Shown piece by piece: positions 4,268 through 62,428 of a DNA stretch of 64,000 nucleotides; positions within the stretch are counted from its first letter, which is position 1; the number at the start of each line of letters is the position of its first letter. Source of the stretch: a virus; the IMG/VR virus record IMGVR_UViG_3300031578_000010, positions 5,428 through 69,427 of that record; one strand, written 5' to 3'. The notes under the pieces are model-generated. The model was not told the DNA's origin. It worked only from the letters and a program-made list of their open reading frames with translations, and did not search any database. The translations under genes were made by a program, and so were the position numbers.

Positions 4268-4693
4268 TTACAGATCTTCGTCGTTCCAGGCATCTTCCTC
4301 GGGCTCTGATTCCCTTTTCTTCTTTTTCTTTCCCTTTTTCTTTGGTTTATCCGAAGTCATAACCTCGGATTTTTCTCCAACCTCGTTAACCGTTTCTGAG
4401 GCAGGAGGCATCCCACGAAGGTCTGGCGGTTCGGTTTTGGAGTAACTAAGCGGCTTTGCTATTCCACTTCCGGAACTCTTCAGGGCGGTTCCGCCCGCGC
4501 TGCACTCGATTAAATCGGTCTTTGACCGAAATAATTCTAAGTCGCACGGCAACGTAACTTTTGCCGGCACTTTCTTCGAGAAAGCATACCGATGGCCAAG
4601 AGTTCCCAAAAAGGCATAGCTTTCCGCAAATCGCGGAACGAAATAAGCCGCCTCTTCCTCCTTCCCCCTCTGTCCGAGATCCTTGTCCGCCAT
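4268..4693 (-). CDS. Hypothetical virion-module protein with charged C-terminal tail
   Basis: 141 aa, SD AGGAG, same GC-rich codon style as capsid genes. Confidence 0.7.
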   Translation of the reverse strand: MADKDLGQRGKEEEAAYFVPRFAESYAFLGTLGHRYAFSKKVPAKVTLPCDLELFRSKTDLIECSAGGTALKSSGSGIAKPLSYSKTEPPDLRGMPPASETVNEVGEKSEVMTSDKPKKKGKKKKKRESEPEEDAWNDEDL

Positions 4694-4723
4694 TTGAATT
4701 CTCCTTTAAAAGTTGAAAGCGGG

Positions 4724-5785: not shown

Positions 5786-5820
5786 CTTATTTCCTCCAGT
5801 TCAAATCGGTTTAACGAAAT

Positions 5821-5847
5821 GGCCTACTAATTACTATTAGTAGGGCC
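5821..5847 (-). terminator. Hairpin overlapping MCP stop codons (possible attenuator)
   Basis: GGCCTACTAA / TTAGTAGGGCC inverted repeat containing TAA TAG TAA stops; weak U tail. Confidence 0.35.
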
Positions 5848-7123: not shown

Positions 7124-7189
7124 TTTTAATCTCCTTCTATTTGGAAACACTTTTTTTACAGATAAAGAGGTTCCGCTTTTCTTTGCGGA

Positions 7190-8092: not shown

Positions 8093-8106
8093 TTCTTGCC
8101 TCCTTT

Positions 8107-16595: not shown

Positions 16596-17037
16596 TCTTA
16601 TTCCTCTTTCTGGCTGTGCCCTTTGGTGCCACGAACATGCGCCCACCTTCGATCAGAACTTCCTCGTCCTCGCCAACGCCCAACCGCTGAAGAAGAATCC
16701 TATTCTCGCGGAACAAATCCTGCTCCTCGCGAGTCACCACGATCTCCTTCAAGTCGGCGGTCTCGCGTCTTAGCACGAGGATTTCCTCGTCCTTGCGGGC
16801 TACTACTCGCTTGAGCATGACGATATTTTTCTTTTCGCCGATCAGTTCCTCTTGCAGCAGCGCAAACTTATACTGGAGGGCCTGTATTGAATCCAGAGGC
16901 CGCACCGTCGGCGACGGCTCCCGTTTAGGGACGTTGGCCTCCTCCTTCACGATTGTTGGAGGATAAGAAAGAGAAGCATCAGATAATACCTTTTCCGCTG
17001 GCTTCTTCTCGCCTCTACGTGTTCTCTTTGTTCCCAT
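16588..17037 (-). CDS. Coiled-coil protein (possible fibre chaperone)
   Basis: 149 aa with heptad-rich centre, between two fibre genes. Confidence 0.6.
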   Translation of the reverse strand: MGTKRTRRGEKKPAEKVLSDASLSYPPTIVKEEANVPKREPSPTVRPLDSIQALQYKFALLQEELIGEKKNIVMLKRVVARKDEEILVLRRETADLKEIVVTREEQDLFRENRILLQRLGVGEDEEVLIEGGRMFVAPKGTARKRNKNG

Positions 17038-17066
17038 GGAAAACTCCTTACCAAGGTCAAGTCCCC

Positions 17067-19421
17067 TTACGCTTCGAAAGCGTACTCCTTGTTCGCGAAT
17101 AGAATAACCTTCGCGTTGACCCCGATCCCGTCCGCTGTCCCCTTAAACACCTTCCCGGTAGTAGGGACCGCGGTAGTCCACTTATGCTCATTGGGATCGG
17201 CGTTGCAAAGGAAAACCTCCTCTCCGTAGACGGTAGGTTCCTCGGCGGCAACCCACACAACAGATAGAATTCCCATCGGGGAGAAGTACCCGGTTGCAGT
17301 CGCGGCTCCGGTAGTAGTCGCGATCCCCGCGAACCCATCGCTCGCCGCTGCGCGTCGAACCAGTTGGCCAGACCCGTCAAACTTCACGGCATCCTTAGCG
17401 GTTATCCCTCCTGTGCCGATAGTCTTCGCGAATTGCGGGCCACCGTAGAGACCGTCCATTATGAACACGTCAGCGATCAGCTCGCCGTTGATATGCTGAT
17501 CCCCACTGAAGATGTTGTCTGCGGCCCTGAAACTACTATGGTCGTCAGAGTCGTGCCGGGTTTCGTTGAGGTACTGAGTGTGATCGTCATCGGCGAGGCC
17601 GTTCAGGGCGAGGCCGTGGTCTATCTTCCCACCGACCCCACTGCCGGCCGACTGGTGAGTGTGGTCCTTTACCTTCTGGAGGTCAGCCAGCTCGCCGCTC
17701 AAACTGGCAACACTGATCTCGTCGGCTCCACTATTCTCGTGACGGCCCGAGTGATCGGCATAGGGATCGTCTGTGAGATCAGCGAAAGCAAGAACCTCCT
17801 GAATCCAGCCGGCGGCGAGTTTCCCTGCCCCGTCTGCGATGGGGATCTTGCTCGCAGTGGGCGTGGCCGTGGCGTTCGCGGGGTCCTTAATCACCTTCAA
17901 ACTTGCATTTAATCCAGCATACCCACTGGCCGCCTCGCGTTCGGACTCCTTCTGGTAAACCGTGTGCGGATCGGCTGCCCCAACGTGATCGAAAGCCCAA
18001 TCTGAAGTCGGAGCCTTCGTTGTTTCACCGTCGGTGGGAGTTCCAGTCAGGTGGTCGGTGATTGAAGCGGGTTGCTGCACGACCTTGGAGCTGGCATCAA
18101 GGGATGCGTATCCGCTCGCAGCCGCTTTGTTTCCGGTGTGTTCTATGGTGTTAGCCCCGGCACCATGGACGCCAGTCGTAAGACCTTTATGGGTCGCAAG
18201 CGTAGATGGCTCCCCATCCAGGCCAGCAAGACTCATCTCATCCCCGCCAGCGTTTTCATGCGTAGCTTTATGGAGTTTGGGATCTTGAGACCCGCGGCTC
18301 GAAGCGTCCAGACCCATGTAGCCACTCGCAGAACCCTTCTCAGATTCCTTCTGATACTCGGGATGCTGATCTGCATCATTCTCGTGGTCGTATGCCCAGT
18401 TGGAACTAATCGGCGCAGTCGTCGCAGCATTCACCGGCGTATCGTCAACATCAAGCTGGCCGAGAAGAGTATCATCGGAAATCTTGGCGCTGAATTCCGC
18501 TTTCGTACAAATGCCGTGGACAGACGCATCAAGGTCATGGTCGCGGGCATGGTGATCATCGATGGATATATCATTCAAATCATCGTGGCTCATAGTTCCT
18601 GGACCGAATTTCACAAAGGTCTGTGAATCAGTCCCGATAGTATCCACCTCAGCGGTTAGTACCCACTGCTCGTCCCCGTTGAGCGTCCCCTCATCAATGA
18701 AAAGCATCATTCCAGCGTTCACCTCGGCGGCCTCGTCGGAATCAATCACGCGAGTGAACACGAAAGGATTTCCGACGTCCCCAAGGGCCGTTACCTTGTA
18801 AATTCCGTTCTGAAGCGCAGCAGCTTGGTTCTTCACAAGAATGCGATCATCGACGGCCATGCTGACGCCATCCTGCGCCGGGAGCGCGCCGTTGGCATTG
18901 GCGGTGAGAGTAGCTCCCACTCCGAGCGTACCATTGTCATAGGTGCAAGCTGGGAGGGCAGCAGTAGTCGATACCCGAGCGGACGGCTTGGACTGTAGCC
19001 CAGTTCCGACGCTATCTACATATGCTTTAGTCGCAAGATGAGTTCCTTCCGTCGGAGCTATACCGGCGACCACGCCTGAAAACGCCCGTGTACCATCGGC
19101 CTTGGTGTAAAGGGGATGGTCGTCATCGCCCCTTCCGGTCAACGCTCCGTGGTCGACCGTTCCAGCTTCAGCGCCGGCAGATGCGTGGGTGTGATCGCCG
19201 ATTGCCGAATGCTGCGCCCTGGCCGTCCCTTCATCGTGGGTGTCATAGTCAGTCTTCAACTGCGCCACGTCCACGCTATCCACGGTGCCGGTTACTGAGA
19301 TGTTGCCGGTCACCTCTAAGCCGTTGGAAACCTTCAACTTTGGAATAGTCCCGTAATTAGCCGTGTTCGGAACCCCAAGGTTGCCAGTGGCAAGCACGAC
19401 CGCTAATTTGTAGTCCGCCAT
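17067..19421 (-). CDS. Long virion fibre protein
   Basis: 784 aa; DRILVKNQAAALQNGIY domain, repeated KGxASGYxxLDAS and DDDHxxY motifs typical of phage fibres. Confidence 0.8.
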   Translation of the reverse strand: MADYKLAVVLATGNLGVPNTANYGTIPKLKVSNGLEVTGNISVTGTVDSVDVAQLKTDYDTHDEGTARAQHSAIGDHTHASAGAEAGTVDHGALTGRGDDDHPLYTKADGTRAFSGVVAGIAPTEGTHLATKAYVDSVGTGLQSKPSARVSTTAALPACTYDNGTLGVGATLTANANGALPAQDGVSMAVDDRILVKNQAAALQNGIYKVTALGDVGNPFVFTRVIDSDEAAEVNAGMMLFIDEGTLNGDEQWVLTAEVDTIGTDSQTFVKFGPGTMSHDDLNDISIDDHHARDHDLDASVHGICTKAEFSAKISDDTLLGQLDVDDTPVNAATTAPISSNWAYDHENDADQHPEYQKESEKGSASGYMGLDASSRGSQDPKLHKATHENAGGDEMSLAGLDGEPSTLATHKGLTTGVHGAGANTIEHTGNKAAASGYASLDASSKVVQQPASITDHLTGTPTDGETTKAPTSDWAFDHVGAADPHTVYQKESEREAASGYAGLNASLKVIKDPANATATPTASKIPIADGAGKLAAGWIQEVLAFADLTDDPYADHSGRHENSGADEISVASLSGELADLQKVKDHTHQSAGSGVGGKIDHGLALNGLADDDHTQYLNETRHDSDDHSSFRAADNIFSGDQHINGELIADVFIMDGLYGGPQFAKTIGTGGITAKDAVKFDGSGQLVRRAAASDGFAGIATTTGAATATGYFSPMGILSVVWVAAEEPTVYGEEVFLCNADPNEHKWTTAVPTTGKVFKGTADGIGVNAKVILFANKEYAFEA

Positions 19422-19460
19422 CTCACATTCCTCCGCAATTGTAGAATTGACTCGGTTGTC

Positions 19461-20084
19461 TTATTCTATTTCAACCACGCAGTTGGGTGCAACGATCACC
19501 TCAGTGGTATTTTTCGCTATTCCCAATCTTTGGATAATTTTATATAATGGTGGCATAGGATCAAAAATCGGGTTAACTATATGTTCCCCAGCTATTGTAC
19601 TTAAGAAAAGGCGATCTTGTGCTGCGAGGCCACTAAAACCATCCACCCTTCCAAGCAACCTAACCTTAGCAATCGTAGAAATCGGCTTTACCACAACAAT
19701 TCCAATAGCCTCCAGGACTTTATCTGTCGCAGATGCAAGAATTACAGTATCATTCTCGCCCTGAGCAACCCAATTATTAACGCTAACTTCAGCGGCACAG
19801 TTATACAATACGTCAACCGACGACCCTCCGCCTCCGCCGCTCCCCCCGTAAAACTGGGTCCACTCAAAGCCATCCCAATATTCATAACATTCTTCGTCCG
19901 TGTTCCAACCAACAGGATGAGGTACTCCGACGCTTGGGGTCGGACGAGTCGCATCATCCCATGTTCCGCCAATTCGTTCTGTTAACCCTTCTATTTGATC
20001 GTCAGGATTATTGAACAAATCTTCATGAAGTGGGGTCGTCGAAACAACCTTTAACTTCGGATAAGGATATTTAATCTCACCCAT
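19461..20084 (-). CDS. Virion structural protein, C-terminal capsid-cement-like beta domain
   Basis: 207 aa; AIGIVV...KVRLLGRVDGFSGLAAQDRLFLSTIAG. Confidence 0.6.
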   Translation of the reverse strand: MGEIKYPYPKLKVVSTTPLHEDLFNNPDDQIEGLTERIGGTWDDATRPTPSVGVPHPVGWNTDEECYEYWDGFEWTQFYGGSGGGGGSSVDVLYNCAAEVSVNNWVAQGENDTVILASATDKVLEAIGIVVVKPISTIAKVRLLGRVDGFSGLAAQDRLFLSTIAGEHIVNPIFDPMPPLYKIIQRLGIAKNTTEVIVAPNCVVEIE

Positions 20085-34745: not shown

Positions 34746-34752
34746 AATTTAG

Positions 34753-35136
34753 TGGAGGCGGCGGGAATCGAACCCGCGTCCCGTCCGAGCATTCCCGCTC
34801 CGTCTACAATCATGTTCCTTTGTTCTGTATTCGGCACAAAGGAAAAGGCCTCTCCGGAACTTTCTCCGGATAAGTCAGCACCTATTTCTCGCATAATATC
34901 CGGCGCGAATACTATGCCAGTCTGAATCGCGGCGTTACTTCACAGAACTCAGACAATTCCATGAGCAACGGAATGATCGTCAAGCAACCATTCTGGCGGC
35001 CATCTCGCTCCTGAAATTCAGCGGCGAGGCGACCTTCTTATTCTTGTTGGCACTTAGTTTTTTTGTGCTCCGTATCGTGGTAGCATACGGATTGCAGGAA
35101 ACGCTTCAACCCGCCGGTCGAGCCCTTTACGCCCCC
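34753..35136 (-). ncRNA. ssrA: tmRNA; tag ORF 35051-34980 encodes ANKNKKVASPLNFRSEMAARMVA*
   Basis: 5' GGGGGCG...GGGCTCGAC; 3' GCGGGTTCGATTCCCGCCGCCTCCA; acceptor stem with G3-U70 and A discriminator; pk1 (CCGTAT/ATACGG, TGCT/AGCA); TAAGT-GCC-AAC resume context; CCA not fully encoded. Confidence 0.95.
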
Positions 35137-47632: not shown

Positions 47633-48625
47633 CTAAAAGCGTGACTGAATATAGTCACTCGTTATTTTTAAAAACCTTTTTCTTGTATTCTTTTTAGAAA
47701 GCAAAACTTCCAGAAACTTCTTCTGGCTTCTTTCAGTAATATCCTCGAATACAAACTTGCCCTTTTTCTTCCTTAGAATTTTTCCTTCCCTGGCCCAAAG
47801 AAATAATTCCTTCGCTTTATCTATTCCTTTATCAAAAGTAATGTAGAAACGTCCTACTCTAAAAGGCGGACAAATCTTAGATTTAACAACCTTAGCAAAA
47901 ACAAAGTTTGAAGTTTCCTTTTGCCCTTCCTTTTCCGTTTTTACTCGTCTAATTTCAATCCGAACAGAAGCCCAAAACTTTAGCGCCCTTCCTCCCGGCG
48001 TCGTCTTCCCGCCACGAGAAAAGCCCCAGCCTATTTTATCCCTTTCTTGATTTAAGAATATAACGAGAACCTTTTTAATATCTGCCAATGCTGCTATTTT
48101 TCGAAGCGCCTTCCCCATCATTCTTGCCTGAAGCGCTACCGTTTCGTCATCCATTTCCCCTTCGAGTTCTTTCTTTGGAACTAAAGCGGCAACGCTATCA
48201 ATAACAATCGTTTTTAGTTTGCCACCTTTTATTAATTCTCGAACAATTCCAAGAGCTTGTTCCCCGTAACTGGGCTGACTTAAATATAAATCCTCTATAT
48301 TTACTCCTATTTTTTTGGCATAGGCAGGATCTAAAGCGTGCTCGGCATCTACTATTCCAGCAGGACCAAAAGTCTTTTGAGTATTGGCCAAAATTTTAAG
48401 AGCAAGAGAAGTCTTGCCGGCCGACTCCGGTCCATATAATTCTATTATTCTGCCAAAAGGAAGCCCTTTCCCGCCTAATGCCTTGTCAAGAGAAACCGAT
48501 CCAGTTGATACACAAATGCCAGGATCAAGAGGTTTATCTCCAAGGCGCATGATCGAACCTTTTCCATATTTCTTCTCGATCAGCGCCATAGTTTTAACTA
48601 TGGTATTCTTTTTCTTCTTTTTCAT
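47633..48625 (-). CDS. recA: RecA recombinase
   Basis: IEKKYGKGSIMRLG, GPESAGKTS, VDAEHALDP, IDSVAALVPK, LQARMM, GGRALKF; start moved to ATG 48625. Confidence 0.95.
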   Translation of the reverse strand: MKKKKKNTIVKTMALIEKKYGKGSIMRLGDKPLDPGICVSTGSVSLDKALGGKGLPFGRIIELYGPESAGKTSLALKILANTQKTFGPAGIVDAEHALDPAYAKKIGVNIEDLYLSQPSYGEQALGIVRELIKGGKLKTIVIDSVAALVPKKELEGEMDDETVALQARMMGKALRKIAALADIKKVLVIFLNQERDKIGWGFSRGGKTTPGGRALKFWASVRIEIRRVKTEKEGQKETSNFVFAKVVKSKICPPFRVGRFYITFDKGIDKAKELFLWAREGKILRKKKGKFVFEDITERSQKKFLEVLLSKKNTRKRFLKITSDYIQSRF

Positions 48626-48630
48626 GTTAT

Positions 48631-49308
48631 CTACCAATTAAGCTCGTCCTCGTCGTCGTCGTCATCGTCTTCACTTTTCTTGCCCTTTTTCTTTTTTCCG
48701 CCTTTCTTCCCTTTTTTGTTTTTCTTGCTCTTTTTCTTGTTTCTTTTCTTGGATTTCTTTTCCTCCTCCTCTTCCTCGTCGTCTTCATCCTCGTCGTCGT
48801 CGTCATCGTCGTCCTCTTCCTCGTCGTCGTCATCGTCGTCGTCTTCATCTTCTTCTTCCTCGTCGTCATCCCCATCTTCGTCATCGTCGTCATCGTCAGT
48901 TTCTTCCGGCTCCTCGCGATCCTTCTTTCCCTTTTTCAAAGAAAAGACCTCGTCGACTTTACACTTCGGTGTGCCATCGTCGTTCACGCTATCCGTATGA
49001 ACGATTGAAATTCGGACCTTTTTCCCTTGCAGAATAGAAATGTCGAACTTCCCTGTTTTGAATTTCATCCCGCCAAGAAGCCGTTTGAGCCACCTGCCCG
49101 TTTTATTTTTTGGGCGGGCATCGAAAGGAGACCATGCTCGCATTTCTACTCCCTTGTGTTTCCCTTTCAGTATTTTAAAAGACCATTTTAATTGAATACC
49201 GTACTTTCCATCCTCCTTTTCTATCTTGGTTATTTGGGCAAGATAGATATCCTCCGGAATTGAAAACCCGGCGCTTTTCGGTGACATAGGAATTCTGAGG
49301 CGCTTCAT
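48631..49308 (-). CDS. DUF669-like single-stranded DNA-binding protein with long acidic and basic tail
   Basis: IPEDIYLAQITKIE...LKWSFKIL OB-like core; D/E tract then K tract, ending DDDDDEDELNW; adjacent to recA. Confidence 0.65.
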   Translation of the reverse strand: MKRLRIPMSPKSAGFSIPEDIYLAQITKIEKEDGKYGIQLKWSFKILKGKHKGVEMRAWSPFDARPKNKTGRWLKRLLGGMKFKTGKFDISILQGKKVRISIVHTDSVNDDGTPKCKVDEVFSLKKGKKDREEPEETDDDDDDEDGDDDEEEEDEDDDDDDDEEEDDDDDDDEDEDDEEEEEEKKSKKRNKKKSKKNKKGKKGGKKKKGKKSEDDDDDDEDELNW

Positions 49309-49589
49309 TTCTTGCTCCTTTTCTTCTCTTTCCTTGCCTTGATTTCCTTTATATAGTCAGCAATGTCCTCCTGGACTTGCTTCCGACATTCTGCTATTAA
49401 TCTCTTCGATACAAGTCTTATTTTCTTTTTATTCTTTAACTTATCATTCGTCAAAACAATAGTTTGTTCATAGAAAGCATAAAAACGTGTCGTATGAAAA
49501 CCGCTAATAAGCAAATTCTCTTCGAAAGCCCTCCTAACAACAAATATTTTTTTAGTTAATCTTTCTAAAGAATTTAATATATTTGGCAT
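49305..49589 (-). CDS. Hypothetical protein
   Basis: 94 aa. Confidence 0.55.
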   Translation of the reverse strand: MPNILNSLERLTKKIFVVRRAFEENLLISGFHTTRFYAFYEQTIVLTNDKLKNKKKIRLVSKRLIAECRKQVQEDIADYIKEIKARKEKKRSKK

Positions 49590-50449
49590 TACTTCCTCCT
49601 CTGATTTTTCTTTATCTTTATAAATGCAGAAATTAATTGCAACGATTTGACACAGCCCAGTCGCATCCTCATATCACATTCAGCAAGATTTAAAACGGCA
49701 ACCATATTTCTATTTTCTATCGCTTCATCTGTCATTACTTTAAAAAGATATTCGGGCTCCATCTTATAAGCGTAATTTGCAAACTCACCTATATTTAAAG
49801 AGAAAACATCCTCGATTATTTCATCATTTAAATCGGCGCCATTTTTCTTTGCTTCTAATAAATGCAATAAACGTCGGGCATCTCCATTAGATTCCATAAT
49901 TATCAATTTAAATTGGTTTTTCTTTATCTTAATATTCTCCACTTGAATAACTCGTTTTGCTAAGACCTCCATATCCTTTTTATCAATCTTTTTAAAATGA
50001 CAAATAGAGCAACGGGAAATGATCGGCTCTATAACCTTGTTTATATAATTACAAGATAAAATAAAACGGCAATTATCGGAATATATCTCCATCATCCTTC
50101 TAAGAGCATGTTGGGCATCCTTTGTTATTTCGCTGGCTTCATCCAAAAATACTATTTTATATTTTCCAAAACCTTTAGTCCTGGCAAATTCCTTTACCTT
50201 CCCTCTAATAACATCAATTCCGCGTTCTGAACTCGCGTTTAATTCCAGAAGAGAATTCTTCCAATCTGCTCCGAATATTTCTCTTGCAATTATTATCGCC
50301 ACAGATGTTTTGCCCGTTCCAGCATCTCCTGAGAATAAAAGGTTGGGGATAATATGTTCTTTTTCAATAAACTTTTTTATTACTTTTATAATAGAGTCCT
50401 GGCCTATAACTTCATCAAATTTATTTGGTCTATATTTCTCTATAAACAT
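49589..50449 (-). CDS. rfcS: Clamp loader AAA+ subunit (RFC small / T4 gp44-like)
   Basis: [54 protein letters not shown]. Confidence 0.92.
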
Positions 50450-50460
50450 CTCAACCTCGT

Positions 50461-50919
50461 TTAAATTAAGGAACGATCAGGTTTTTTTATCAGTATAACT
50501 CCTTTAGTTTTCTTCCCCCATACAACCTTTTGCCCAGTTAAATTAAAGCCGAATTTCTCAAAAAACCTAATCGATCTTTTGTTCTTTGCCATGGCCTCCG
50601 TCCATATTACTTTATCTCGATAAATAATAAGGAACTTTTTTAAAACCCTCCCAGCGTTTCCATCCCCCGGCATCTTAGTAACAATTTCAGATATATGGCA
50701 ATCCCCACAATGACGCTTAACACCATGAAACCTTGTATTTACTTTATATATTCGATAAATTATTACAACATTATCTTGAAAAATTACTTGATTCCTTTTT
50801 ATCGGATCCTCTAATTTTGCAGCATAATATCTCTTTATATACGGAAATATATTATCATATTTCAGAAATATTTTCTTTATCTTATCTAAATCATTAATAG
50901 TTGCGAATTTCATCGTCAA
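50461..50919 (-). CDS. GNAT-family acetyltransferase
   Basis: [18 protein letters not shown] (motif A), [13 protein letters not shown] (motif B). Confidence 0.8.
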
Positions 50920-51809
50920 CCCCTAATGATATTGGCGTTGCCAACTACCCAAAAACAAACCTTGTCCTTCTTCTTGTCAATCAATTTCTCTCTAATCATA
51001 AAATCATAGGCCTTAGATTCATATATATTATCCAATTCAAATCCAACATTTATATGTAAAGCCTTAGAATAGGAATATTTTCCACTATAATATTTAAACT
51101 TATAACAAAATCTTGGCAAACCAATTCCAGAATATATAACAGGCCTTCTATCATGACCGAAAGGTTGAATGGCTATTATCTTCTTTAATTTAAGCTTATA
51201 TCTTAGAACACCCGACATAATTCCTGAAAATGTTAATCCGCTCCCTACAATAACAACCATCGTATCTATAAACTCAGGGATATTTTTAACTTGGTGCGCT
51301 GTTACATCGATTATTGACTTCCGATCCGAAGATACGTTCATCCCAAAAGCAACCAAAAACATAGGGCGCTCTTTAGCAAGAGTTTTTAACCTGCTATATA
51401 GAACATTATTAAACCCATAATGTTCAGATACAACCTTTATCTCAGAGCCCAACTTCTTAGCAATACGAATAGTCCGATAATTCGATAAAGCCTTTTCAAC
51501 CGTTGTCCCTCCAATTCCAATAATAGACTTAAAACCTAACTCCTTCGCAACCCTCGAAACTATTGTTCCTTGTGGCGAAGATACCGAAGTTGCTGTTGCT
51601 ACCGTTCTATTAAAAGAAGAAATTATCTGTTTCCTATTAGATAGTAGCAAGGTGAGACACTGGCGAACTTTCCCGCCGTTTATTTGGTTATATAATTTGT
51701 GACAAGATCTAAATCGCCCAAACGGCTTAAATAGATCATCTCGCTTAAAATAAATTCCATCATATTCCTCAACAGGAGTTAAATCATATATTCCGTATTT
51801 ATTTTTCAT
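50916..51809 (-). CDS. PLP-dependent fold-type II enzyme (ACC deaminase/D-cysteine desulfhydrase-like)
   Basis: LTPVEEYDGIYFKRDDL, GGKVRQ (Schiff-base Lys), VGSGLTFSGI, LDNIYESKA. Confidence 0.8.
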   Translation of the reverse strand: MKNKYGIYDLTPVEEYDGIYFKRDDLFKPFGRFRSCHKLYNQINGGKVRQCLTLLLSNRKQIISSFNRTVATATSVSSPQGTIVSRVAKELGFKSIIGIGGTTVEKALSNYRTIRIAKKLGSEIKVVSEHYGFNNVLYSRLKTLAKERPMFLVAFGMNVSSDRKSIIDVTAHQVKNIPEFIDTMVVIVGSGLTFSGIMSGVLRYKLKLKKIIAIQPFGHDRRPVIYSGIGLPRFCYKFKYYSGKYSYSKALHINVGFELDNIYESKAYDFMIREKLIDKKKDKVCFWVVGNANIIRG

Positions 51810-52356
51810 TTTGACCCCTTGTAGGAAAACTATAATAAAACCTCATAAAGGGGCTATATTTCGGATTAAAACAAGACAATAAAAAATGTACTATCCTTCT
51901 TTCAGTATAATATAATAACTGATCTATTCTATTTATTAAATTAATATTCTCTAAATCGTTTTCATCCAGGTTACTTATAATCCACTTCAATAAAACCTCC
52001 AACGGAGGTTTCTCTCTTTCTAAGGAATTAAAAACCTGTTTTCTATTCTTATTTGAAAAGATCAAAGAGAGTGTATGGAAAATATTGCTTCCTTCTGTCT
52101 TTCCATAATAAAGAACTTTATTAACCAAATGTTTGACTTTTTGGATTCTATCTTCTTTCGCTGTTCTTAGATCAATATCACAGGAACTTCTTTTTATTAT
52201 AGAATTTAATTTCCTTATATCTAATCTCCCAGCATCCAAATCTATTATTATCTTAGATTTAATTAACTGTTTTGCCAACATCTTATTTAGAGTAATTTTG
52301 TCTAAAGATATTGCATCTTTAAAGATCTCTTTATCGCAAACAAGCAACCTAATCAT
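51799..52356 (-). CDS. Putative second clamp-loader subunit (RFC large C-terminal-like / gp62 analogue)
   Basis: SNIFHTLSLIFSNK...PPLEVLLKWIISNL resembles RFC-L collar region; no ATPase domain. Confidence 0.5.
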   Translation of the reverse strand: MIRLLVCDKEIFKDAISLDKITLNKMLAKQLIKSKIIIDLDAGRLDIRKLNSIIKRSSCDIDLRTAKEDRIQKVKHLVNKVLYYGKTEGSNIFHTLSLIFSNKNRKQVFNSLEREKPPLEVLLKWIISNLDENDLENINLINRIDQLLYYTERRIVHFLLSCFNPKYSPFMRFYYSFPTRGQNEK

Positions 52357-53219
52357 TATATTCTCTGAAATATTTGAGCATATTCGTGGACTCGAACTAA
52401 ATTATGATTTCCTTTTGTGAACATCCCGATTCGCTGTATAGCCGGCGTTCCCCTAAAAATAATAGGAATCTCTTCCAACATTTTAAAACCTGTTCGGTGC
52501 ATTCTTGCAGTGTCATGATTCATTCCCTGTAAATATCCATCCAAATCTCTAACCAAACCAATAACCCAAACTGAAATAGCCCCTTTCTTTAATATTCTAT
52601 AACTCTCGTTTATTGATTTCTGAATTCCTTTATTAAACTCATCGTATGTTCCTAACATTGATAAATCTTTCTTTCCTCCTCGATAGTGTTCCACATTCCA
52701 ATAAGGCGGGCAAGTAATAAGAAAGTCTGCAATTTCATCCTCAACCATTGGAACAGATCTTGAATCGCCACATATTATCTTAACTTTTTTAGATACCTTA
52801 TTTCTTTTCGCCCTCCGCAAAATTGCCTCACATTCGTTCTTTCTAATTTCAATTCCAATATAATCCATTCCATGGCGGGCCGCCATAATTGCCCTTGTCC
52901 CTCCCCCAGCGAAAGGATCGTAACATATCCCCTTCTTGGGAGCGTATCTATTAAAAATCCAATACGCTGTCGCTGGATTAAAAACACTTTGAGAATTCCT
53001 ATAACAAGATTTCTTAGATTGATTTTCTGGCTGAAGGCAAGCCGCTCTTTCGGATCCAAAATAGGCGGAATCCCCAATATGCCTTTTCTGCCTTCTAACC
53101 TCTGGATCAGATAAATATGACTCCCAAACTGTAAATGGCGGAGCCGGCAATCTGCCCACAGATGTTTTAAAATCGCCAACTATCTGGCCAAATAGGTCTT
53201 TAACTTGTTTTCTTGACAT
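52356..53219 (-). CDS. Amino-type DNA methyltransferase, paralogue 2
   Basis: DPFAGGGT, ITCPPYW; N-terminal QVKDLFG. Confidence 0.85.
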   Translation of the reverse strand: MSRKQVKDLFGQIVGDFKTSVGRLPAPPFTVWESYLSDPEVRRQKRHIGDSAYFGSERAACLQPENQSKKSCYRNSQSVFNPATAYWIFNRYAPKKGICYDPFAGGGTRAIMAARHGMDYIGIEIRKNECEAILRRAKRNKVSKKVKIICGDSRSVPMVEDEIADFLITCPPYWNVEHYRGGKKDLSMLGTYDEFNKGIQKSINESYRILKKGAISVWVIGLVRDLDGYLQGMNHDTARMHRTGFKMLEEIPIIFRGTPAIQRIGMFTKGNHNLVRVHEYAQIFQRI

Positions 53220-54133
53220 TATTTCTTCTCCGGTTTTTTAAATATAAGAACATATTCATGAGAACGAATAAGAAACTTCCTGCCTTTATCAAAATTCCCC
53301 ACTCGCCTTAAAGATCCGGTGTTCTTAATATGTAGAATAATTTCTTCTTTAATTAAAAATCCAGCTTTCCGATGCATTGATGTCACATCATGGTTCAAAC
53401 AAATAAGACTTCCATTTTTATGTCTATGTAATCCTACAACCCAGCAAGATATTGATCCAGGTTTCAAAATTCTAAAAGTTTCGCGAACAACTTTAAATAA
53501 ATCTCCTTTGAATTCACTATATGATTCTTTCATAGATAAATCAGTAACTCCGCCCTCATATTTTTCAAGGTTCCAATAAGGAGGGCAAGTTATAAGAAAA
53601 TCTGCTTTAGAATTTGTGACCTTCCGAGGATATCTTGCATCGCCATGAATTATTTTAACCCGATCAGAAAAACCCGCATTATCCACTCTTTTTTCGACCG
53701 CTATACATTCTTCTTTTCTTATTTCATATCCTATATATTTTAATCCATGCCGAGCCGCCATTATAGCCCTTGTACCTCCGCCAGCGAAGGGGTCAAAACA
53801 TATCCCCTTTTTAGGAGCATATAAATTTAATAACCAATAAGCAATTGCTGGATTAAATACACTCGCGCCATATTGATAACCAAATGTTCCATCAACCGTT
53901 TCATGCCGGGCTCGTTTCTCTGCCTCTTTAAAACTAAATTTATATCTACTGGTATTCGTGCCCTGCGATCTCGACTTAGCATCTTTAACTGCCCCGATAT
54001 CCCCCACCATCTTTTTAAATTTGCGGACCTGAGGATCACTCATATCGCAATCCCAAACGGTGATAGGCCAGATACCATATCTCTGGCGCATCGTTTTAAA
54101 TTCGCCAACGGCTTCACCAAATAAATCTTTCAC
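53219..54133 (-). CDS. Amino-type DNA methyltransferase, paralogue 3
   Basis: DPFAGGGT, ITCPPYW; N-terminal MKDLFG. Confidence 0.85.
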   Translation of the reverse strand: MKDLFGEAVGEFKTMRQRYGIWPITVWDCDMSDPQVRKFKKMVGDIGAVKDAKSRSQGTNTSRYKFSFKEAEKRARHETVDGTFGYQYGASVFNPAIAYWLLNLYAPKKGICFDPFAGGGTRAIMAARHGLKYIGYEIRKEECIAVEKRVDNAGFSDRVKIIHGDARYPRKVTNSKADFLITCPPYWNLEKYEGGVTDLSMKESYSEFKGDLFKVVRETFRILKPGSISCWVVGLHRHKNGSLICLNHDVTSMHRKAGFLIKEEIILHIKNTGSLRRVGNFDKGRKFLIRSHEYVLIFKKPEKK

Positions 54134-54876
54134 TTTCCCTCCTCCTCTTTCGTCATGAGCAAATAAAGAGAAGAATATTTATCGCCAAACCTAATCAACA
54201 TAGGAGGGTCTTTCTCCAAGAATATTTTAACCTTTCCTTCCAAGGATTTAAAGATCTCTTTTATACCATGCCCAAAACAAACTGACATCTCTTTCTTTAA
54301 TACAGGTTTTTTTATTTGAAGGTTTGTCGTTATTGAATTTTTTCCTCTTTTTACTTTTGCTTTTACTCCCGCCTTATCAATTAAGATATAATATGTATGC
54401 TCATCGAGAATATCAGCATCCCCTACTAATTCTTTTAATTGTTCCGCCCTCACAATAAAATTATTTGTTTTATATACGACCTTTAAGGCAGGAGTTTTAA
54501 TGGAGTTCTTCTCGAATTTGATGGCATCCACGTTAGCAAAACTCTCTATATTTTTCAAGGGAGTCACTTCGAAACGACCTATTTTCCTCTTCTGTTTTAT
54601 AATCAGCTGCTTTTCATCGGCAGAAATGGAAACAGTATCAGAAAAGCGAGTCAATATTTTCATGAACTGAGCAATATCCCCAATAGTAAATATTCCATGT
54701 TTCTGAATTTGGGCTTCTGTGCTTACTCGAAAGAAAATTGCCCTCGATGTATCCGTTCCTTTCGTTGTTAACTGCCCATTCTTAGCGGATATAACGCAAT
54801 CCAGCACCAACCCATCAAGATGAGCTTGTGAAAGGAAACTGATAAAGCTGCCATTATCTATTTCGAAAAGCGCCAT
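54130..54876 (-). CDS. Sliding clamp, PCNA/gp45-like (two-domain subunit)
   Basis: 248 aa; KGTDTSRAIFFRV, IGDIAQFMKIL, VKIFLEKDPPMLIRF...YLLM follow PCNA pattern; in operon with clamp loader and polymerase. Confidence 0.75.
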   Translation of the reverse strand: MALFEIDNGSFISFLSQAHLDGLVLDCVISAKNGQLTTKGTDTSRAIFFRVSTEAQIQKHGIFTIGDIAQFMKILTRFSDTVSISADEKQLIIKQKRKIGRFEVTPLKNIESFANVDAIKFEKNSIKTPALKVVYKTNNFIVRAEQLKELVGDADILDEHTYYILIDKAGVKAKVKRGKNSITTNLQIKKPVLKKEMSVCFGHGIKEIFKSLEGKVKIFLEKDPPMLIRFGDKYSSLYLLMTKEEEGK

Positions 54877-55367
54877 TACTTTGTCCTCCTATATTCGCTA
54901 TCCAAACTCCGGATAGCGTTCTCCAAAGCGTCCAAAAGCTTGTTCGTCCGGTGCATTACGTTAGTGTAAATTGAAACTTTTTCAATTCCTTTTGCTTCCT
55001 CTGCCCTAAGTTTCTTACTTCGTCTTTCTGCTTCATTAGTACATATACTATCAGTTACCTTATCGACCCCATCAACGCCTTCTGTTTTCGCGTTCATGAA
55101 AAAGGCTGCTGATTTTGTTTTTCTAATTCCGTATATTTTATTTTGCTCCCCCTCTGCCTTCCCAGCATATACCGCAAGAAAAACGTTGAGGGCGGATAGG
55201 TTTATTTGATCTCGTATCAGCTTATCTTTTTTATATCTTGAAACCATTTCCGCGATGCCTATTCCAGCATATTTATCGACTATTTTGAGTATCTTCCTTA
55301 AGAACTCATACTCCTGTGGGTCATTCTGAAAGGTCGAAAAATCTATAATAACATTCCGCTCTTGCAT
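54876..55367 (-). CDS. Helical hypothetical protein (possible UvsY-like recombination mediator)
   Basis: 163 aa; C-terminal amphipathic helices; location in replication/recombination operon. Function is a guess. Confidence 0.45.
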   Translation of the reverse strand: MQERNVIIDFSTFQNDPQEYEFLRKILKIVDKYAGIGIAEMVSRYKKDKLIRDQINLSALNVFLAVYAGKAEGEQNKIYGIRKTKSAAFFMNAKTEGVDGVDKVTDSICTNEAERRSKKLRAEEAKGIEKVSIYTNVMHRTNKLLDALENAIRSLDSEYRRTK

Positions 55368-58300
55368 TCCTCTATCTCCAAAAAGGATTGAATTTTCTCT
55401 GTTATATTAAAGACCTTATCCTTATCCCCATAGCAAAGAACCCTATTCCCGCCCATGAGCCGCCCATCTACAAAAACGATATTAAAAGGTTTCAATACAG
55501 ATTTAAAATGTTGCATCCCTGCTTTATCTAAATATATATAAATATCCCCCCTATGATCTTCCATTTTAACTACAGCGGCAGATTTCCCCGTCATCTTTTC
55601 CTGAATTTCTAAAATAATACCACAAACCCTAACCCTCTCCCACCTATTATATTGACTTAGTTGCAGAGACGAAGAACAATATCTTTTTAATAAGAAATCT
55701 TTAACAGGTTCAAAAAAGAAAGGATGCAATAAAATAAATCCAAAGGCATCCACAGAATCTTCAAGGAACGTTTTATTAGTATCTAATACCTTTTCCTTCC
55801 GGATTGAATTAAAACGGCCTTTAACGGCCTGTCTTTCCATTAAAGAATCAAAACATCCTGCCTGTATTAATTTAATTATCTTTCCTTTGTGGACCTTTCC
55901 ACTTATTTTTTCAATAAAATCATCGAAGGATTTAAATGGCCTCTTTTCTATAATCTCTTCCGCAGATGTTTTAATTTCCTTTATTTTAGATAATCCAAAT
56001 CTTATCCCATCCTTTTCTATCGTAAACCCCATCCCCGATTTATTAATATCCGGGCCGTATACATTAATATTAAATCGCCTTGCTTCATTTATATATTTAT
56101 ATAGTTTGTTTTTCTCCGAACCTTTTTTTCTATCCTTTGTTATTCCTACGTCAGTATTGCTAAGCAAACTGGCAAAGAATTGACGAGGATAATAATTCTT
56201 TAAATACAGCACCTGAAAAAATAAATAAGTGTATGAGATTGCATGGGACGCGTTGAAAGAATAACTTGTAAATTCCTTTATTACATTCCAAAGTTTTATC
56301 GCGTCGTTGTTCCCAATAGTCTTCCTACAATGTTCAAAGAATTCCTTTTTAAATTTCTTTATCTCCTTTGTATTAAATTCTTTCTTCGCAGCCAATTTCC
56401 GAATATTATTTGCTTCTGCTAAAGAAAATCCTGCCACCCTATGTAATAGCTGCATAACCTGTTCTTGATATACTAAAACACCTCGTGTTCCTTTCAATGT
56501 TTTTTTAACCTCTTTATTATCAATTCCTATCCCTTCATAATTAATAAACCTTTCTATTGCCCCGCTCGCTAAAGGTCCGGGCCTATTTATAGCATTTAAA
56601 GCGGCAATCTCGCCAAAGTTTTTAGGTTTAACATCCATCAATAAGCGCGTTGCTGATTCGGTTTCAAATTGGAACGCCCCTATCGTATTCCCTTTATTCG
56701 CTTCTTCGATTAACTTTTTATCTTTAATATCTAATTTCCAAATACTATCACTTAGATCCTTTTTCTCAGTTTCCTTTACCAAATCTATCGCGTCAGAAAT
56801 AATAGAACAAGTATTTAACCCTAATATATCAAATTTAATTAATCCCACGGCAGATAAATCCCTCCCTCGGTTTCCTTCAGAATATGCAGAAACCAATTCC
56901 CCTTTTATTTTTTGCAATGGGCAATATTTATAGACAGGATTTGGAGCAATAACAACCCCGCAAGGATGAACTCCTGAATTCCTAATTAAACTTGACGCCC
57001 TTTTGGCAAGGTTAAAGGCAACTTTATTTTCTTTTACAAAATCTTTCAATATTCCAGACAAATTATTAAATGCTTTCTTTATATTCCCTGCCCTATATAT
57101 TTCTCCCGTTATTTCATTTATTGACCGAATAGGGAGTTTAAATATTCTGCCTACATCCCGTAATGCTCCGACTTCCCCGAAGGTATTAAATGTTATAATT
57201 CTTGCTACTTTATTTTGGCCATGCCTATCGTTCAAATAAGAAAAAACCAAATCCCTTTTATTAGCCTGAAAATCGAGGTCGATATCCGGCGCGTCAGACC
57301 GAGACTTATCAAGAAAGCGTTCAAATAATAAACCGTATTTAAGCGGATCTATCTTCGTGATATTCAGAATAAACGCAACTAAAGATCCTGCAACAGAACC
57401 TCTTGCCGGTCCCACAAATATCCTGTTTTCTCGGCACCAATTAGTTAAATCCCGAACGATCAAAAAATAGTCCTGAAATTTCAATTTTTGAATTACATCC
57501 AATTCCCTCTTCATTCTTTTCTTATATTTTTCTTTATCTTTAAAATCAAATCGCCTGAATTCCCGCATAGTCATTTTTCTAAATTCGGAAACATCCATCC
57601 CCATATCTGGAATATGTATTTTCCCCATCGGGATCTTTATATCGCAGCCCGACGCCAAATCTGCCGTGCAGTCAGTATATCTTTTAAATTCTTTCTTTGT
57701 TATATTATGGCCAAATTTCCTGGCCATAGAAAAGAGTTCTTTCCCATCAACCAAATGCAAAGAACGAGCATTATAAACAACCTTTTTTCTATCGTCTATC
57801 GTTTTATGTTCTCTGACCATCAATACAAAATCTTGTAATTCAACATCCCTTTTCTCTGCATAATGAGAATCAAGAGCGACTATCAAAGGAATATGTAATC
57901 TGTTGGCAATTTTCTTCAATCTTTCATTTGTATATTTTTGTGTTACAACTTCATTTAATTGTAGTTCTATAACGAAATTATCCCCAAATGCATCCCTCCA
58001 CCTTAAAGCCTCCTGTAAAGCCATTTTATCATTTGGCAATTTCGCCAATATCCCGCCCATGCAAGCAGTTGACGCTATAATATCTTTATTATGATTAAAT
58101 ATAATTTCAGATGTCGTTCTTGGTCTATAATAATATCCATTAATATTTGCCTCAGAAACTATATATAAAAGATTCAAATAACCTACATAACTTTTCGCCA
58201 ATAAAATAACGTGCCTATACTCCCCTTTTCTCCCTGGCGAATCATCAACGTACATCTCAACGCCAATTATCGGATTAATTCCAGCCTTTCTACATTCTAA

Positions 58301-58459
58301 ATAAAATTCCAAGCCTCCCGCCATTGTTCCGTGGTCGGTTATTGCAAGAGAAGGCATATTTAAATCGGCAGCCTTTTTCACCAAAGAAGTAATTGTAGCA
58401 ACGCCATCCAAGATGGAAAAATGGCTGTGAGAATGAAGATTTATTAAATTAAACTTCAT
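55343..58459 (-). CDS. dnaE: DNA polymerase III alpha subunit (family C)
   Basis: PHP LHSHSHFSILDG, AITDHG; GPARGSVAGS, PDIDLDF, GVHPCG, KFDILGL, GAFQFE, YSFNASHA; no intein visible. Confidence 0.96.
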   Translation of the reverse strand: MKFNLINLHSHSHFSILDGVATITSLVKKAADLNMPSLAITDHGTMAGGLEFYLECRKAGINPIIGVEMYVDDSPGRKGEYRHVILLAKSYVGYLNLLYIVSEANINGYYYRPRTTSEIIFNHNKDIIASTACMGGILAKLPNDKMALQEALRWRDAFGDNFVIELQLNEVVTQKYTNERLKKIANRLHIPLIVALDSHYAEKRDVELQDFVLMVREHKTIDDRKKVVYNARSLHLVDGKELFSMARKFGHNITKKEFKRYTDCTADLASGCDIKIPMGKIHIPDMGMDVSEFRKMTMREFRRFDFKDKEKYKKRMKRELDVIQKLKFQDYFLIVRDLTNWCRENRIFVGPARGSVAGSLVAFILNITKIDPLKYGLLFERFLDKSRSDAPDIDLDFQANKRDLVFSYLNDRHGQNKVARIITFNTFGEVGALRDVGRIFKLPIRSINEITGEIYRAGNIKKAFNNLSGILKDFVKENKVAFNLAKRASSLIRNSGVHPCGVVIAPNPVYKYCPLQKIKGELVSAYSEGNRGRDLSAVGLIKFDILGLNTCSIISDAIDLVKETEKKDLSDSIWKLDIKDKKLIEEANKGNTIGAFQFETESATRLLMDVKPKNFGEIAALNAINRPGPLASGAIERFINYEGIGIDNKEVKKTLKGTRGVLVYQEQVMQLLHRVAGFSLAEANNIRKLAAKKEFNTKEIKKFKKEFFEHCRKTIGNNDAIKLWNVIKEFTSYSFNASHAISYTYLFFQVLYLKNYYPRQFFASLLSNTDVGITKDRKKGSEKNKLYKYINEARRFNINVYGPDINKSGMGFTIEKDGIRFGLSKIKEIKTSAEEIIEKRPFKSFDDFIEKISGKVHKGKIIKLIQAGCFDSLMERQAVKGRFNSIRKEKVLDTNKTFLEDSVDAFGFILLHPFFFEPVKDFLLKRYCSSSLQLSQYNRWERVRVCGIILEIQEKMTGKSAAVVKMEDHRGDIYIYLDKAGMQHFKSVLKPFNIVFVDGRLMGGNRVLCYGDKDKVFNITEKIQSFLEIEECKSGMLL

Positions 58460-58463
58460 ATTA

Positions 58464-58661
58464 TTAACCTTTAATCTTTTCCAGATTAGAACAAAGAGAA
58501 GAGAAGTCCTTCCAATATTCTTTTCTTAAAATTGCAATGTAGCAATATTCGGAAGAAGAATAATGAGAAATTATATAAACAAAATTATTAAACCTGGATA
58601 TTAGTCTATTAAAAATTTCAGGTGTTATAGTTGTTATTATAAAATTATCAAGATTGGGCAT
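58464..58661 (-). CDS. Small hypothetical protein
   Basis: 65 aa, SD GAGGAG. Confidence 0.5.
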   Translation of the reverse strand: MPNLDNFIITTITPEIFNRLISRFNNFVYIISHYSSSEYCYIAILRKEYWKDFSSLCSNLEKIKG

Positions 58662-58840
58662 GAATATATCTCCTCATGATCTTGGAGGAATTAAAATGCC
58701 GCTGCTTTCCGAAGACCTACGTTCTCCATTCTTAATCGTTCTACTAATAGCTGCCATACCATTATTGATATTCTTATTGCCTTTTATATTGGTAATAACC
58801 CTCTTCTGTTCGGTGCCTTCGGATAGTAAAGGGGAATCCC

Positions 58841-59050
58841 TCATTCCTTCCTGTGTATCTTGCTTGCTATTAATGAAATTGCGTCCTCTTCAGAAGAGGT
58901 TTTTATCTTTTCTTTTATTTCCGGCAGGTCTTCTAAATAAATAAAAAGAGAATGTTTCGGCTCTTCCCCCCTCGCAATAATGTCAATTTCATCCAGAGTA
59001 ACCCGTTTGAAAAGCATACTAAACTGGGCAATTAAATCACGCTTATTCAT
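58841..59050 (-). CDS. Small hypothetical protein
   Basis: 69 aa. Confidence 0.5.
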   Translation of the reverse strand: MNKRDLIAQFSMLFKRVTLDEIDIIARGEEPKHSLFIYLEDLPEIKEKIKTSSEEDAISLIASKIHRKE

Positions 59051-61888: not shown

Positions 61889-62428
61889 TTAGAAATCGTC
61901 GTCTTCGTCGTCGTCCTCTTCTTCTTCCTCCTCGTCGTCGTCCTCGTATTCGTCCTCGTCATCCTCGTCGTCGTCGTCCTCGTCGACGTCCTCGTCCTCC
62001 TCTTCCTTTTTCGCCTTCTTTTCCTTCTTGCCCTTTTTCTTTTCCTTTTTCGCCTTCTTTTCCTTCTTGCCCTTTCCCTTGGGCTTTTCTTCTTCTTCCT
62101 CCTCTTCCTCCTCCTCGTCTTCTTCCTCTTCCTCCTCCGGCTCTTCCTTTTCCTTTTTCGGCCGGCCGCGCTTGCCATCGGACTTCTTCTTTTTCCTTTT
62201 CCCGCCGCCTTCCTCGCGCATTTCCTTGACCTTGGCGTCGATCAGTTTCTTGAGTTCCTGGAGTTCCTTTCTGAGCTCAACCAGATAGCTTTTCAGCGTC
62301 CGGCCGATCTTTGCCGAGCCCTCCAGGAAATACGGAATCTCCGAGTCGATGAAGGCAGTCGCAATCGCGACACGGTGCGCCATGGAAATGATCGGGCTTT
62401 TCTCTCGCTTTTCTTTCTTTTCCTTCAT
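61889..62428 (-). CDS. Polyampholyte protein (coiled coil + alternating E/D and K tracts)
   Basis: 179 aa; SD AAAGGAG; tracts are codon-varied (not homopolymer DNA). Confidence 0.75.
   Translation of the reverse strand: MKEKKEKREKSPIISMAHRVAIATAFIDSEIPYFLEGSAKIGRTLKSYLVELRKELQELKKLIDAKVKEMREEGGGKRKKKKSDGKRGRPKKEKEEPEEEEEEDEEEEEEEEEEKPKGKGKKEKKAKKEKKKGKKEKKAKKEEEDEDVDEDDDDEDDEDEYEDDDEEEEEEDDDEDDDF

Follow-up and report, generated by a model that had tools for sequence, protein, structure and literature searches.

Here we describe a replication locus in the IMG/VR virus record IMGVR_UViG_3300031578_000010 (90,431 bp; G000 hereafter), in which a string of minus-strand genes places a full-length family C DNA polymerase (DnaE) together with a sliding clamp assigned to the PCNA family and an RFC-type clamp-loader ATPase. 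The window analysed is a stretch of 64,000 nucleotides (bases 5428-69427 of that record), and positions of G000 genes are given in its coordinates. CheckV rates the genome as 100% complete, and the record's first ~180 nt overlap its last ~180 nt, consistent with a genome that is circularly permuted or terminally redundant. The minus strand carries nearly all genes. DnaE, a bacterial-type RecA, a sigma-70-like factor, a DnaB-type helicase and a transfer-messenger RNA (tmRNA) gene are hallmarks that point to a bacterial host. From DnaE downwards, the locus reads as follows (aa, amino acids; pI, isoelectric point):

55343..58459, minus strand: DnaE, 1038 aa (Pfam PHP, DNA_pol3_alpha, finger and HHH_6)
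54876..55367, minus strand: orf163, encoded between DnaE and clamp; a conserved helical protein (gene overlaps, clade-restricted homologues)
54130..54876, minus strand: two-domain PCNA-family sliding clamp, 248 aa, pI 9.4 (assigned from the AlphaFold2 (AF2) fold and the family profile)
52356..54133, minus strand: two paralogous DNA methyltransferases of N6/N4 type (Pfam N6_N4_Mtase, 5e-21 and 3e-14)
51799..52356, minus strand: orf185, candidate non-ATPase A subunit of the clamp loader, 185 aa (gene position, AF2 model)
50916..51809, minus strand: open reading frame (ORF) resembling a pyridoxal-phosphate (PLP) enzyme, 297 aa (PALP match of 1.3e-7, under the curated cut-off)
50461..50919, minus strand: orf152, second ORF in the latter half of an inserted cassette
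49589..50449, minus strand: RFC-small-type AAA+ ATPase, 286 aa (phrog_168, 1.6e-56; archaeal RFC-S, 1e-64)
49305..49589, minus strand: orf94, a small basic protein (one base in common with the RFC stop)
48631..49308, minus strand: orf225, candidate single-stranded DNA-binding protein (SSB; architecture only)
47633..48637, minus strand: RecA-type recombinase (Pfam RecA, 5e-97)
down to 41504, minus strand: recombination block following RecA, with orf362, SbcD, SbcC, RuvC, NYN and a flap endonuclease (PHROG/Pfam)

Between DnaE and RecA, adjacent genes overlap by 1-25 nt at every junction except for a single 11-nt gap, and thus are packed like one operon; orf163 shares 25 nt with the 3′ end of DnaE and 1 nt with the start of the clamp gene. 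A consensus scan from DnaE to RecA returned no strong terminator-like site on the minus strand and promoter-like sites not above the shuffled expectation, so it is the spacing of the genes that argues for the operon. A first-pass annotation of the window had described DnaE as co-operonic with the clamp, the RFC ATPase and an RFC-large-like gene, and all of these are indeed present, on the minus strand and with overlapping junctions.

A full-length family C polymerase

DnaE shares with bacterial DNA polymerase III (Pol III) both its domain order (PHP, palm, fingers, helix-hairpin-helix (HhH), weak OB) and its catalytic residues. Pfam recognises PHP (9e-42), DNA_pol3_alpha (2e-75), the finger domain (2e-39) and HHH_6 (1e-19), along with a weak OB match at residues 943-1002, and the closest PDB entries are the Pol III alpha subunits of Taq (E 3.6e-144) and M. 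tuberculosis (5e-126). D392 and D394 (PDIDLDF) and the aspartate of GLIKFDILGL align with Taq D463/D465/D618; together with the order PHP, palm, fingers, HhH, these three catalytic aspartates identify the protein as a member of family C. The PHP domain is intact and of the Taq/M. tuberculosis type, with nine of the nine metal-ligand positions as in Taq (HxH, D, H, E, H, C, DxH). Further downstream, the chain stops at residue 1038, ~36 aa past the OB region, and hence lacks a tau-binding domain.

Does the phage rely on this enzyme alone? Searches of the whole G000 genome for PolB (PF00136), PolA and RNase_T/epsilon came back empty, and DnaE is its only DNA polymerase. In DnaE proteins of the Taq and M. 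tuberculosis type (M. tuberculosis DnaE1), the PHP domain itself can proofread. Given this precedent and a genome devoid of an epsilon-type exonuclease, proofreading through the PHP domain is likely here as well.

Deposited phage DnaE proteins are ~30% identical to that of the window, and loader and DnaN are both absent from the five GenBank phage records with the closest DnaE. In some relatives (L003 7301-8597; P0005 contigs), the DnaE gene is split near residue 736 by a ~1.3-kb HNH endonuclease insert, giving gene calls of 832 aa, 308 aa (HNH) and 344 aa. The DnaE gene of the Bacillus jumbo phage KLEB27-3 (GenBank; L099) is likewise split around an HNH gene.

A PCNA-family sliding clamp

Searched as a single sequence, the clamp has no Pfam match, including to PCNA. 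Its AF2 model, built with five homologues (predicted local distance difference test (pLDDT) 84, predicted template modelling score (pTM) 0.83), consists of two clamp-domain repeats, that is, two topologically identical beta-alpha-beta-beta-beta domains per chain. An exhaustive structural comparison places it closest to A. fulgidus PCNA (Z 21.7, root-mean-square deviation (rmsd) 2.7 Å, 226 of 244 residues aligned), with other PCNAs at Z 19-21, T4 gp45 at 17.9, two of the three domains of beta clamps at 15-18.5 and the herpesvirus proteins UL44 and UL42 at 14.6 and 11, respectively. Foldseek gives full-length matches to archaeal and eukaryotic PCNAs with template modelling (TM) scores of ~0.75, and a few beta clamps appear among its top ranks (TM ~0.4).

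A profile search of a library of 1.8 billion proteins recovered 185 representatives of the clamp family, mostly of 245-280 aa. The profile built from 49 members matches Thermococcales PCNA over its full length (5e-13), DnaN partially (5.5e-4) and RB69 gp45 at 0.28. Because modelled fold and sequence profile agree, we assign the protein to the PCNA family. The two-domain, PCNA-like clamp of 248 aa that the first-pass annotation had proposed is thereby borne out, and the Foldseek check suggested there returns a clamp fold (PCNA). With two domains per chain and a loader present, the clamp is expected to trimerise into a six-domain ring.

Neither megablast of positions 49000-59000 nor tblastn with the clamp and two distant family members (P0010 and P0013) as queries found the family in 50,697 phage records, and a search with a 6-member clamp alignment returned two IMG/VR loci only. 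Certain members are longer, ~370-385 aa (L015 1714-2859 (P0015); P0060, P0088, P0090, P0103), with the family match in their C-terminal two domains and an extra N-terminal part of ~130 aa; they adjoin an orf185-like gene and an RFC ATPase. Pfam detects no DnaN domain in family members of ~380 aa, which could be three-domain clamps.

An RFC-type loader and a candidate A subunit

The 286-aa ATPase carries Walker A (GDAGTGKT, residues 41-48), Walker B (IVFLDEA) and SRC (145-147) motifs, as expected of an RFC-type loader ATPase. Its best PDB matches are the RFC small subunits of A. fulgidus (2chg, 1e-64) and P. furiosus (1iqp, 1e-60), followed by RFC2-5 of yeast and human (1e-51 to 1e-43), as against 2.5e-18 for T4 gp44 and ~1e-14 for E. 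coli gamma/tau. Judged by these matches, which span residues 2-201 to 2-217 and leave the collar region (~202-286) unalignable by sequence, the ATPase resembles archaeal/eukaryotic RFC far more closely than it does gp44 or gamma/tau. Identity is 51-59% within the clade of the window's DnaE (DnaE-type-1 below), and the nearest deposited viral kin come from haloarchaeal tailed viruses, whose RFC small subunits are 44-45% identical over 200 aa. The earlier label of an RFC-small-like ATPase agrees with these matches and with that to phrog_168 (1.6e-56). The earlier remark that the window holds neither DnaN nor DnaX extends to the whole 90,431-bp genome: no DnaN (PF02768) is encoded anywhere in it, and the single PF13177 match is the RFC-type gene itself, hence no DnaX.

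The second loader component is more difficult to recognise. orf185 has no P-loop, its family has no Pfam match, and its AF2 model (pLDDT 81) combines an N-terminal alpha/beta domain with a C-terminal helical domain. In every relative, including those with PolA and those with a second type of DnaE, the gene lies between clamp and RFC ATPase. Top structural matches are Ctf18 (8zwo_A, Z 7.9) and T4 gp62 (3u5z_A, Z 7.7, rmsd 2.2 over 75 aa), values at the border of noise (best Foldseek E 0.04), and Rad24-RFC, yeast RFC1 (1sxj_A) and human RFC1 (6vvo_A) follow. This enrichment of A subunits among the matches, together with the conserved gene position, makes orf185 a candidate clamp-loader A subunit of the gp62/RFC-large/Ctf18/Rad24 class. 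The truncated RFC-large-like subunit of the first-pass annotation is most likely this gene (51799-52356), with the reservation that its structural matches are borderline. A hint from an Atlas feature (0.85) at an AraC-type helix-turn-helix in orf185 fell beneath the line of reliability and was rejected.

Two further small genes are coupled to the core, orf163 to those of DnaE and clamp and orf94 to that of RFC. Homologues of orf163 occur in the DnaE-type-1 clade only (45-58% identity), and those of orf94 only in L002, L011 and L012 of the same clade. orf163 lacks any Pfam or PDB sequence match, and its Atlas model is a helical hairpin; a proposed relation to UvsY (11% of one neighbouring Atlas cluster, score 0.89) was too weak to use. 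Both proteins may act as adaptors.

One core, several polymerases

The gene order DnaE, orf163, clamp, [variable cassette], orf185, RFC, orf94, orf225, RecA, orf362, SbcD, SbcC recurs in seven distinct contigs, across which clamp identity falls from 58% to 41%. One of the seven, G035, is also a complete genome, of 88 kb and with direct terminal repeats. It encodes DnaE and has neither DnaN (PF02768) nor PolB (PF00136), the searches for PolA, DnaX and epsilon having been confined to G000. In G035, nothing separates the clamp, orf185 and RFC genes, which marks the methyltransferases, the PLP-enzyme-like ORF and orf152 of the window as an insertion. L002 lacks all of these, with clamp, orf185 and RFC adjoining. 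The methyltransferase cassette is therefore outside the replisome core.

A hot spot for DNA-modification cassettes lies in the gap that separates clamp and loader genes (50461-54133 in the window). In relatives, it holds the 7-deazaguanine genes QueD/PTPS, QueE, FolE and QueC (L011 10744-14614, L012 9713-13220, L014 6578-9296), or is empty (L002); in the PolA-type L004, 7-deazaguanine genes lie upstream of the clamp gene (2974-8702) and not in the gap. Coupling of post-replicative modification to the clamp is a possibility. Intein-like insertions (Intein_splicing, LAGLIDADG) were seen in L012 (13220-15283) and L016 (13526-15838), their hosts being a 687-aa ORF beside QueC and a cytosine methyltransferase.

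The polymerase, too, varies among more distant relatives. In two lineages, clamp, orf185 homologue and RFC are followed directly by a fusion of uracil-DNA glycosylase (UDG), exonuclease and PolA (L004 12487-14988; L005 12294-14810), and then by a gp32-like SSB, RecA and SbcCD. In one further lineage, PolB comes after the A subunit and RFC. In a second DnaE lineage, L016 (a 106-kb contig from a metagenome-assembled genome in GenBank), clamp, A subunit and RFC are succeeded by two genes and then by a DnaE that is only 29% identical to that of the window. In the RFC tree, the DnaE, PolA and PolB lineages and the haloarchaeal-virus RFCs form one clade (support 100/99), apart from the loaders of T4-like jumbo phages. 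The DnaE-type-1 group is monophyletic (100/99). How the DnaE, PolA and PolB lineages branch from one another is not resolved in this tree, so the polymerase swaps can be neither counted nor given a direction. With the same module carrying PolA, PolB or a very different DnaE, these comparisons nonetheless indicate that the clamp/loader/recombination core is a conserved unit, around which the polymerase was exchanged at least once. This wider context was not part of the first-pass annotation.

A C-terminal motif common to the relatives' DnaE, PolA and PolB was not found. The PolA proteins begin with KSLF (or QDLF), resembling clamp-binding motifs; as these are two independent sequences only, we treat them as a lead to a clamp contact and not as evidence for one.

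Neighbouring genes and other features of the genome

Downstream of the loader, SbcD, SbcC, RuvC and the 5′-3′ flap exonuclease are assigned by PHROG/Pfam matches, and the RecA/SbcCD recombination block is syntenic among relatives. The DnaB-type helicase is encoded elsewhere in G000. Which protein might coat single-stranded DNA? orf225 (pI 4.7), which is conserved in relatives, has an N-terminal part of ~125 aa followed by a long D/E-rich tail that ends in ...DELNW. A second protein with a D/E-rich tail and a terminal aromatic residue (...DDDF) is encoded at 61889-62428 on the minus strand. Both tails resemble those with which E. coli SSB and T7 gp2.5 bind their partners, and by this analogy orf225 is a candidate SSB, and a likelier one than the 61889-62428 protein. 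orf362 had been considered as kin of the gp32-like SSB of a PolA-type relative, and no relationship was detectable.

ARAGORN places the tmRNA gene at 34752-35136 on the minus strand, with the tag peptide ANKNKKVASPLNFRSEMAARMVA. GC content is 0.53-0.56 at positions 4001-8000 and 16001-20000 of the window, compared with 0.35-0.40 in most of the genome.

A replicase from two lineages?

How might these components work together? The replication module of this phage is probably a replicase assembled from parts of both cellular lineages. In the mechanism we propose, DnaE would synthesise DNA and proofread its own product via PHP, operating without epsilon and without a tau-binding domain. The PCNA-family clamp would tether it, closing a six-domain ring as a trimer, and the ring would be loaded by an RFC-type complex of four copies of the 286-aa ATPase and one P-loop-less orf185, by analogy with T4 gp44/gp62 and archaeal RFC-S/RFC-L. 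The candidate SSB, flap endonuclease and RecA/SbcCD block surround this module, with the DnaB-type helicase encoded elsewhere. For the contact between DnaE and clamp, the conserved C-terminal ...L-[LIVA] tail is the best candidate. The core of clamp, loader and recombination genes would be the stable unit, with the polymerase slot filled by family C, A or B. Trimer formation, the loader stoichiometry, DnaE as the main client of the clamp and the contact it uses are steps that we infer. We are evenly divided on the more specific proposal of a natural family C-PCNA holoenzyme, in which DnaE would be tethered, via its L-hydrophobic tail or via orf163/orf94, to a trimeric basic ring served by a 4+1 RFC-type loader, with the same core accepting polymerases of family A, B or C among sister lineages.

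Several points weigh against a DnaE that works on this clamp. Their physical coupling is inferred. The segment of DnaE between the HhH domain and the conserved GF.L.HPF, where E. coli alpha has its beta-binding motif, is only ~28 aa long, and pattern searches of the protein found neither a beta-binding motif (Q..[LMIV]F / QLxLxL) nor a genuine PCNA-interacting-peptide (PIP) box. IQSFLEI, which the first-pass annotation had put forward as a C-terminal clamp contact, does not recur as a conserved PIP box; conservation is confined to the terminal L-[LIVA], which is invariant or conservatively replaced in six orthologues. The sole conserved contact candidate is thus a two-residue hydrophobic C-terminus. 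The clamp/loader module is not specific for one polymerase, as relatives pair it with PolA, PolB or another DnaE, and it could mainly serve other clients; the host beta clamp may be the partner of DnaE. To these come the borderline structural matches of orf185 and the basic charge of the clamp, discussed below. The chimeric replisome of the first-pass annotation holds for gene composition (family C DnaE, PCNA clamp, RFC loader), whereas an adaptation of DnaE to the clamp stays conjectural.

In the same pattern searches, PIP-box matches in DnaE at 415 and 665 were discarded for lying inside conserved catalytic or finger segments. No C-terminal motif common to DnaE and other phage proteins was found. 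A complex prediction for the clamp with DnaE residues 780-1038 scored 0.00 without controls and weighs neither way.

The strongest competitor of the two-lineage replicase is that clamp and loader serve the flap endonuclease, ligase, DNA-modification, recombination or late transcription (compare T4 gp45), while DnaE acts alone or with the host beta clamp. The retention of the same clamp, A-subunit and RFC core next to PolA, PolB and an unrelated DnaE would suit such a division of labour, as would the modification cassettes found repeatedly between clamp and loader genes and a DnaE devoid of a recognisable clamp-binding motif. Most of the GenBank DnaE phages tested do without any clamp, in line with an earlier survey (PMC3201878). 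Yet DnaE, orf163 and clamp show translational coupling and strict synteny across seven contigs, and DnaE has neither the beta-binding region of E. coli alpha nor a tau-binding domain. Moreover, loaders of surveyed viruses never occur without a clamp, and a processivity factor is accompanied by a polymerase gene in 85% of cases (PMC4889955). On balance, we consider this alternative unlikely.

A second competitor arises from the charge of the clamp. Its pI is 9.41, and those of eight DnaE-type-1 clamps range from 9.1 to 9.7, against a family median of 5.2 and values of 5.1 for PolA-type clamps. The usual PCNA-type pattern of an acidic protein with positive inner helices is not what the model displays: its four helices (channel position aside) have a net charge of -2 and the remainder +12, so that the extra charge lies off the helices. 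Basic clamp homologues have been tied to a loader-independent, non-ring function, and the DnaE-type-1 clamps contradict the published rule that clamps with loaders are acidic (Kazlauskas and Venclovas, PMC3201878). Accordingly, the clamp could be imagined as a non-ring factor that binds DNA directly, in the manner of herpesvirus UL42/UL44, with the RFC-like ATPase in another or a vestigial role. Against this, the entire proteome of DnaE-type phages is basic (median pI 9.2-9.5, RecA 10.0, DnaE 9.4; window, L002, L011 and L012), compared with medians of 6.3-7.5 in PolA-type relatives, and the shift may therefore be lineage-wide and not specific to the clamp. The ATPase also retains all three motifs (Walker A, Walker B, SRC) and is 51-59% identical across the clade, and the clamp model is much closer to ring-forming PCNA (Z 21.7) than to UL44 (14.6) or UL42 (11). 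We thus judge a UL42/UL44-like factor to be quite improbable.

Lastly, DnaE could serve in auxiliary or repair synthesis and leave the copying of the phage genome to the Pol III holoenzyme of the host, as its divergence (~30% identity to any deposited phage DnaE) and the presumed auxiliary role of the mini-DnaE of T4-like jumbo phages (PMC7824862) might suggest. This is very improbable for a full-length sole polymerase with intact PHP and catalytic residues, encoded alongside a helicase, clamp, loader, flap endonuclease and candidate SSB in a genome of the size range (40-140 kb) in which double-stranded DNA (dsDNA) viruses encode a polymerase more often than smaller ones do (PMC3201878).

Comparison with known systems

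Among known systems, the T4 replicase (gp43, gp45, gp44/gp62) is the obvious reference. It, too, has a phage-encoded two-domain clamp of the PCNA superfamily and a minimal RFC-like loader of one ATPase type plus a small non-ATPase subunit, with clamp and loader genes near each other and beside recombination genes. In contrast, the T4 polymerase (gp43) belongs to family B, while here it is of family C with PHP, and PF00136 is absent from both G000 and G035; clamp and ATPase resemble archaeal PCNA and RFC-S much more closely than they do gp45 and gp44; the clamp is basic; and the gene order is clamp, A-subunit, ATPase instead of 45-44-62. Of the bacterial Pol III holoenzyme, DnaN, DnaX, delta/delta′, epsilon, the beta-binding motif and the tau-binding domain are all missing here.

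Jumbo phages offer a further comparison. In the T4-like phages of group 2.2, PolB is accompanied by a split minimal Pol III alpha and by a loader and clamp of RFC/PCNA type. Subgroup 3.2 uses a Pol III alpha that contains PHP, with no clamp or loader reported, and some members of subgroup 3.1 combine PolA with an RFC-like loader, the clamp being undetectable (Iyer et al. 2021, PMC7824862). The Pfam-invisible family described here may be that missing clamp. In our data, mini Pol III genes lie near the RFC gene in 23 of 32 IMG/VR records with T4-like loaders. Group 2.2 thus resembles G000 in joining an RFC/PCNA-type clamp and loader with a Pol III alpha homologue; unlike any of these jumbo phages (PMC7824862), G000 has a full-length DnaE as sole polymerase, with clamp and loader, in a non-jumbo genome of 90 kb.

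The haloarchaeal tailed viruses HCTV-1, HVTV-1 and HCTV-5 provide the nearest deposited kin of the loader ATPase, within a shared RFC clade, and weak matches to the clamp family adjoin their RFC genes; their hosts, however, are archaea, and the searched records of that clade carry PolB. Bacillus phage 0305phi8-36 has a C-family polymerase and a phage clamp homologue with elevated pI, but its clamp is a homologue of Pol III beta and comes with no loader (PMC3201878). It was the only one with a clamp, loader-less, among 28 genomes with a C-family polymerase in a survey of 808 dsDNA virus genomes (Kazlauskas and Venclovas 2011, PMC3201878). PCNA and RFC at the family level were assigned to archaeal and eukaryotic viruses, T4-like clamps being PCNA-like in structure only (Kazlauskas et al. 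2016, PMC4889955). In the literature that we searched, we came across no account of a phage whose sole polymerase is a full-length DnaE and which also has a clamp and loader of PCNA/RFC type. Mosaicism as such is a known trait of phage replisomes. As the surveys, GenBank DnaE phages, BLAST and literature searches revealed nothing alike, the combination of DnaE with a PCNA/RFC-type clamp and loader, and with polymerase-swapping relatives, appears to be undescribed.

Implications

Sliding clamps and their loaders are homologous across life; replicative polymerases are not. An ancient displacement of the polymerase is the usual explanation for the unrelated replicases of bacteria on the one hand and archaea and eukaryotes on the other. 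To our knowledge, pairing is strict in cells: family C goes with the beta clamp and a DnaX loader, families B and D with PCNA and RFC. If true, a family C-PCNA holoenzyme would be a living case in which replicative polymerases displace one another while clamp and loader are conserved. The clamp family itself is an addition invisible to Pfam and to BLAST of deposited phage genomes, and DnaE, clamp, ATPase and orf185 form a small set of proteins with which the use of a PCNA-type ring by a family C polymerase can be tested. A phage clade with one PCNA/RFC/recombination core and DnaE, PolA or PolB beside it would offer a tractable natural model of polymerase displacement.

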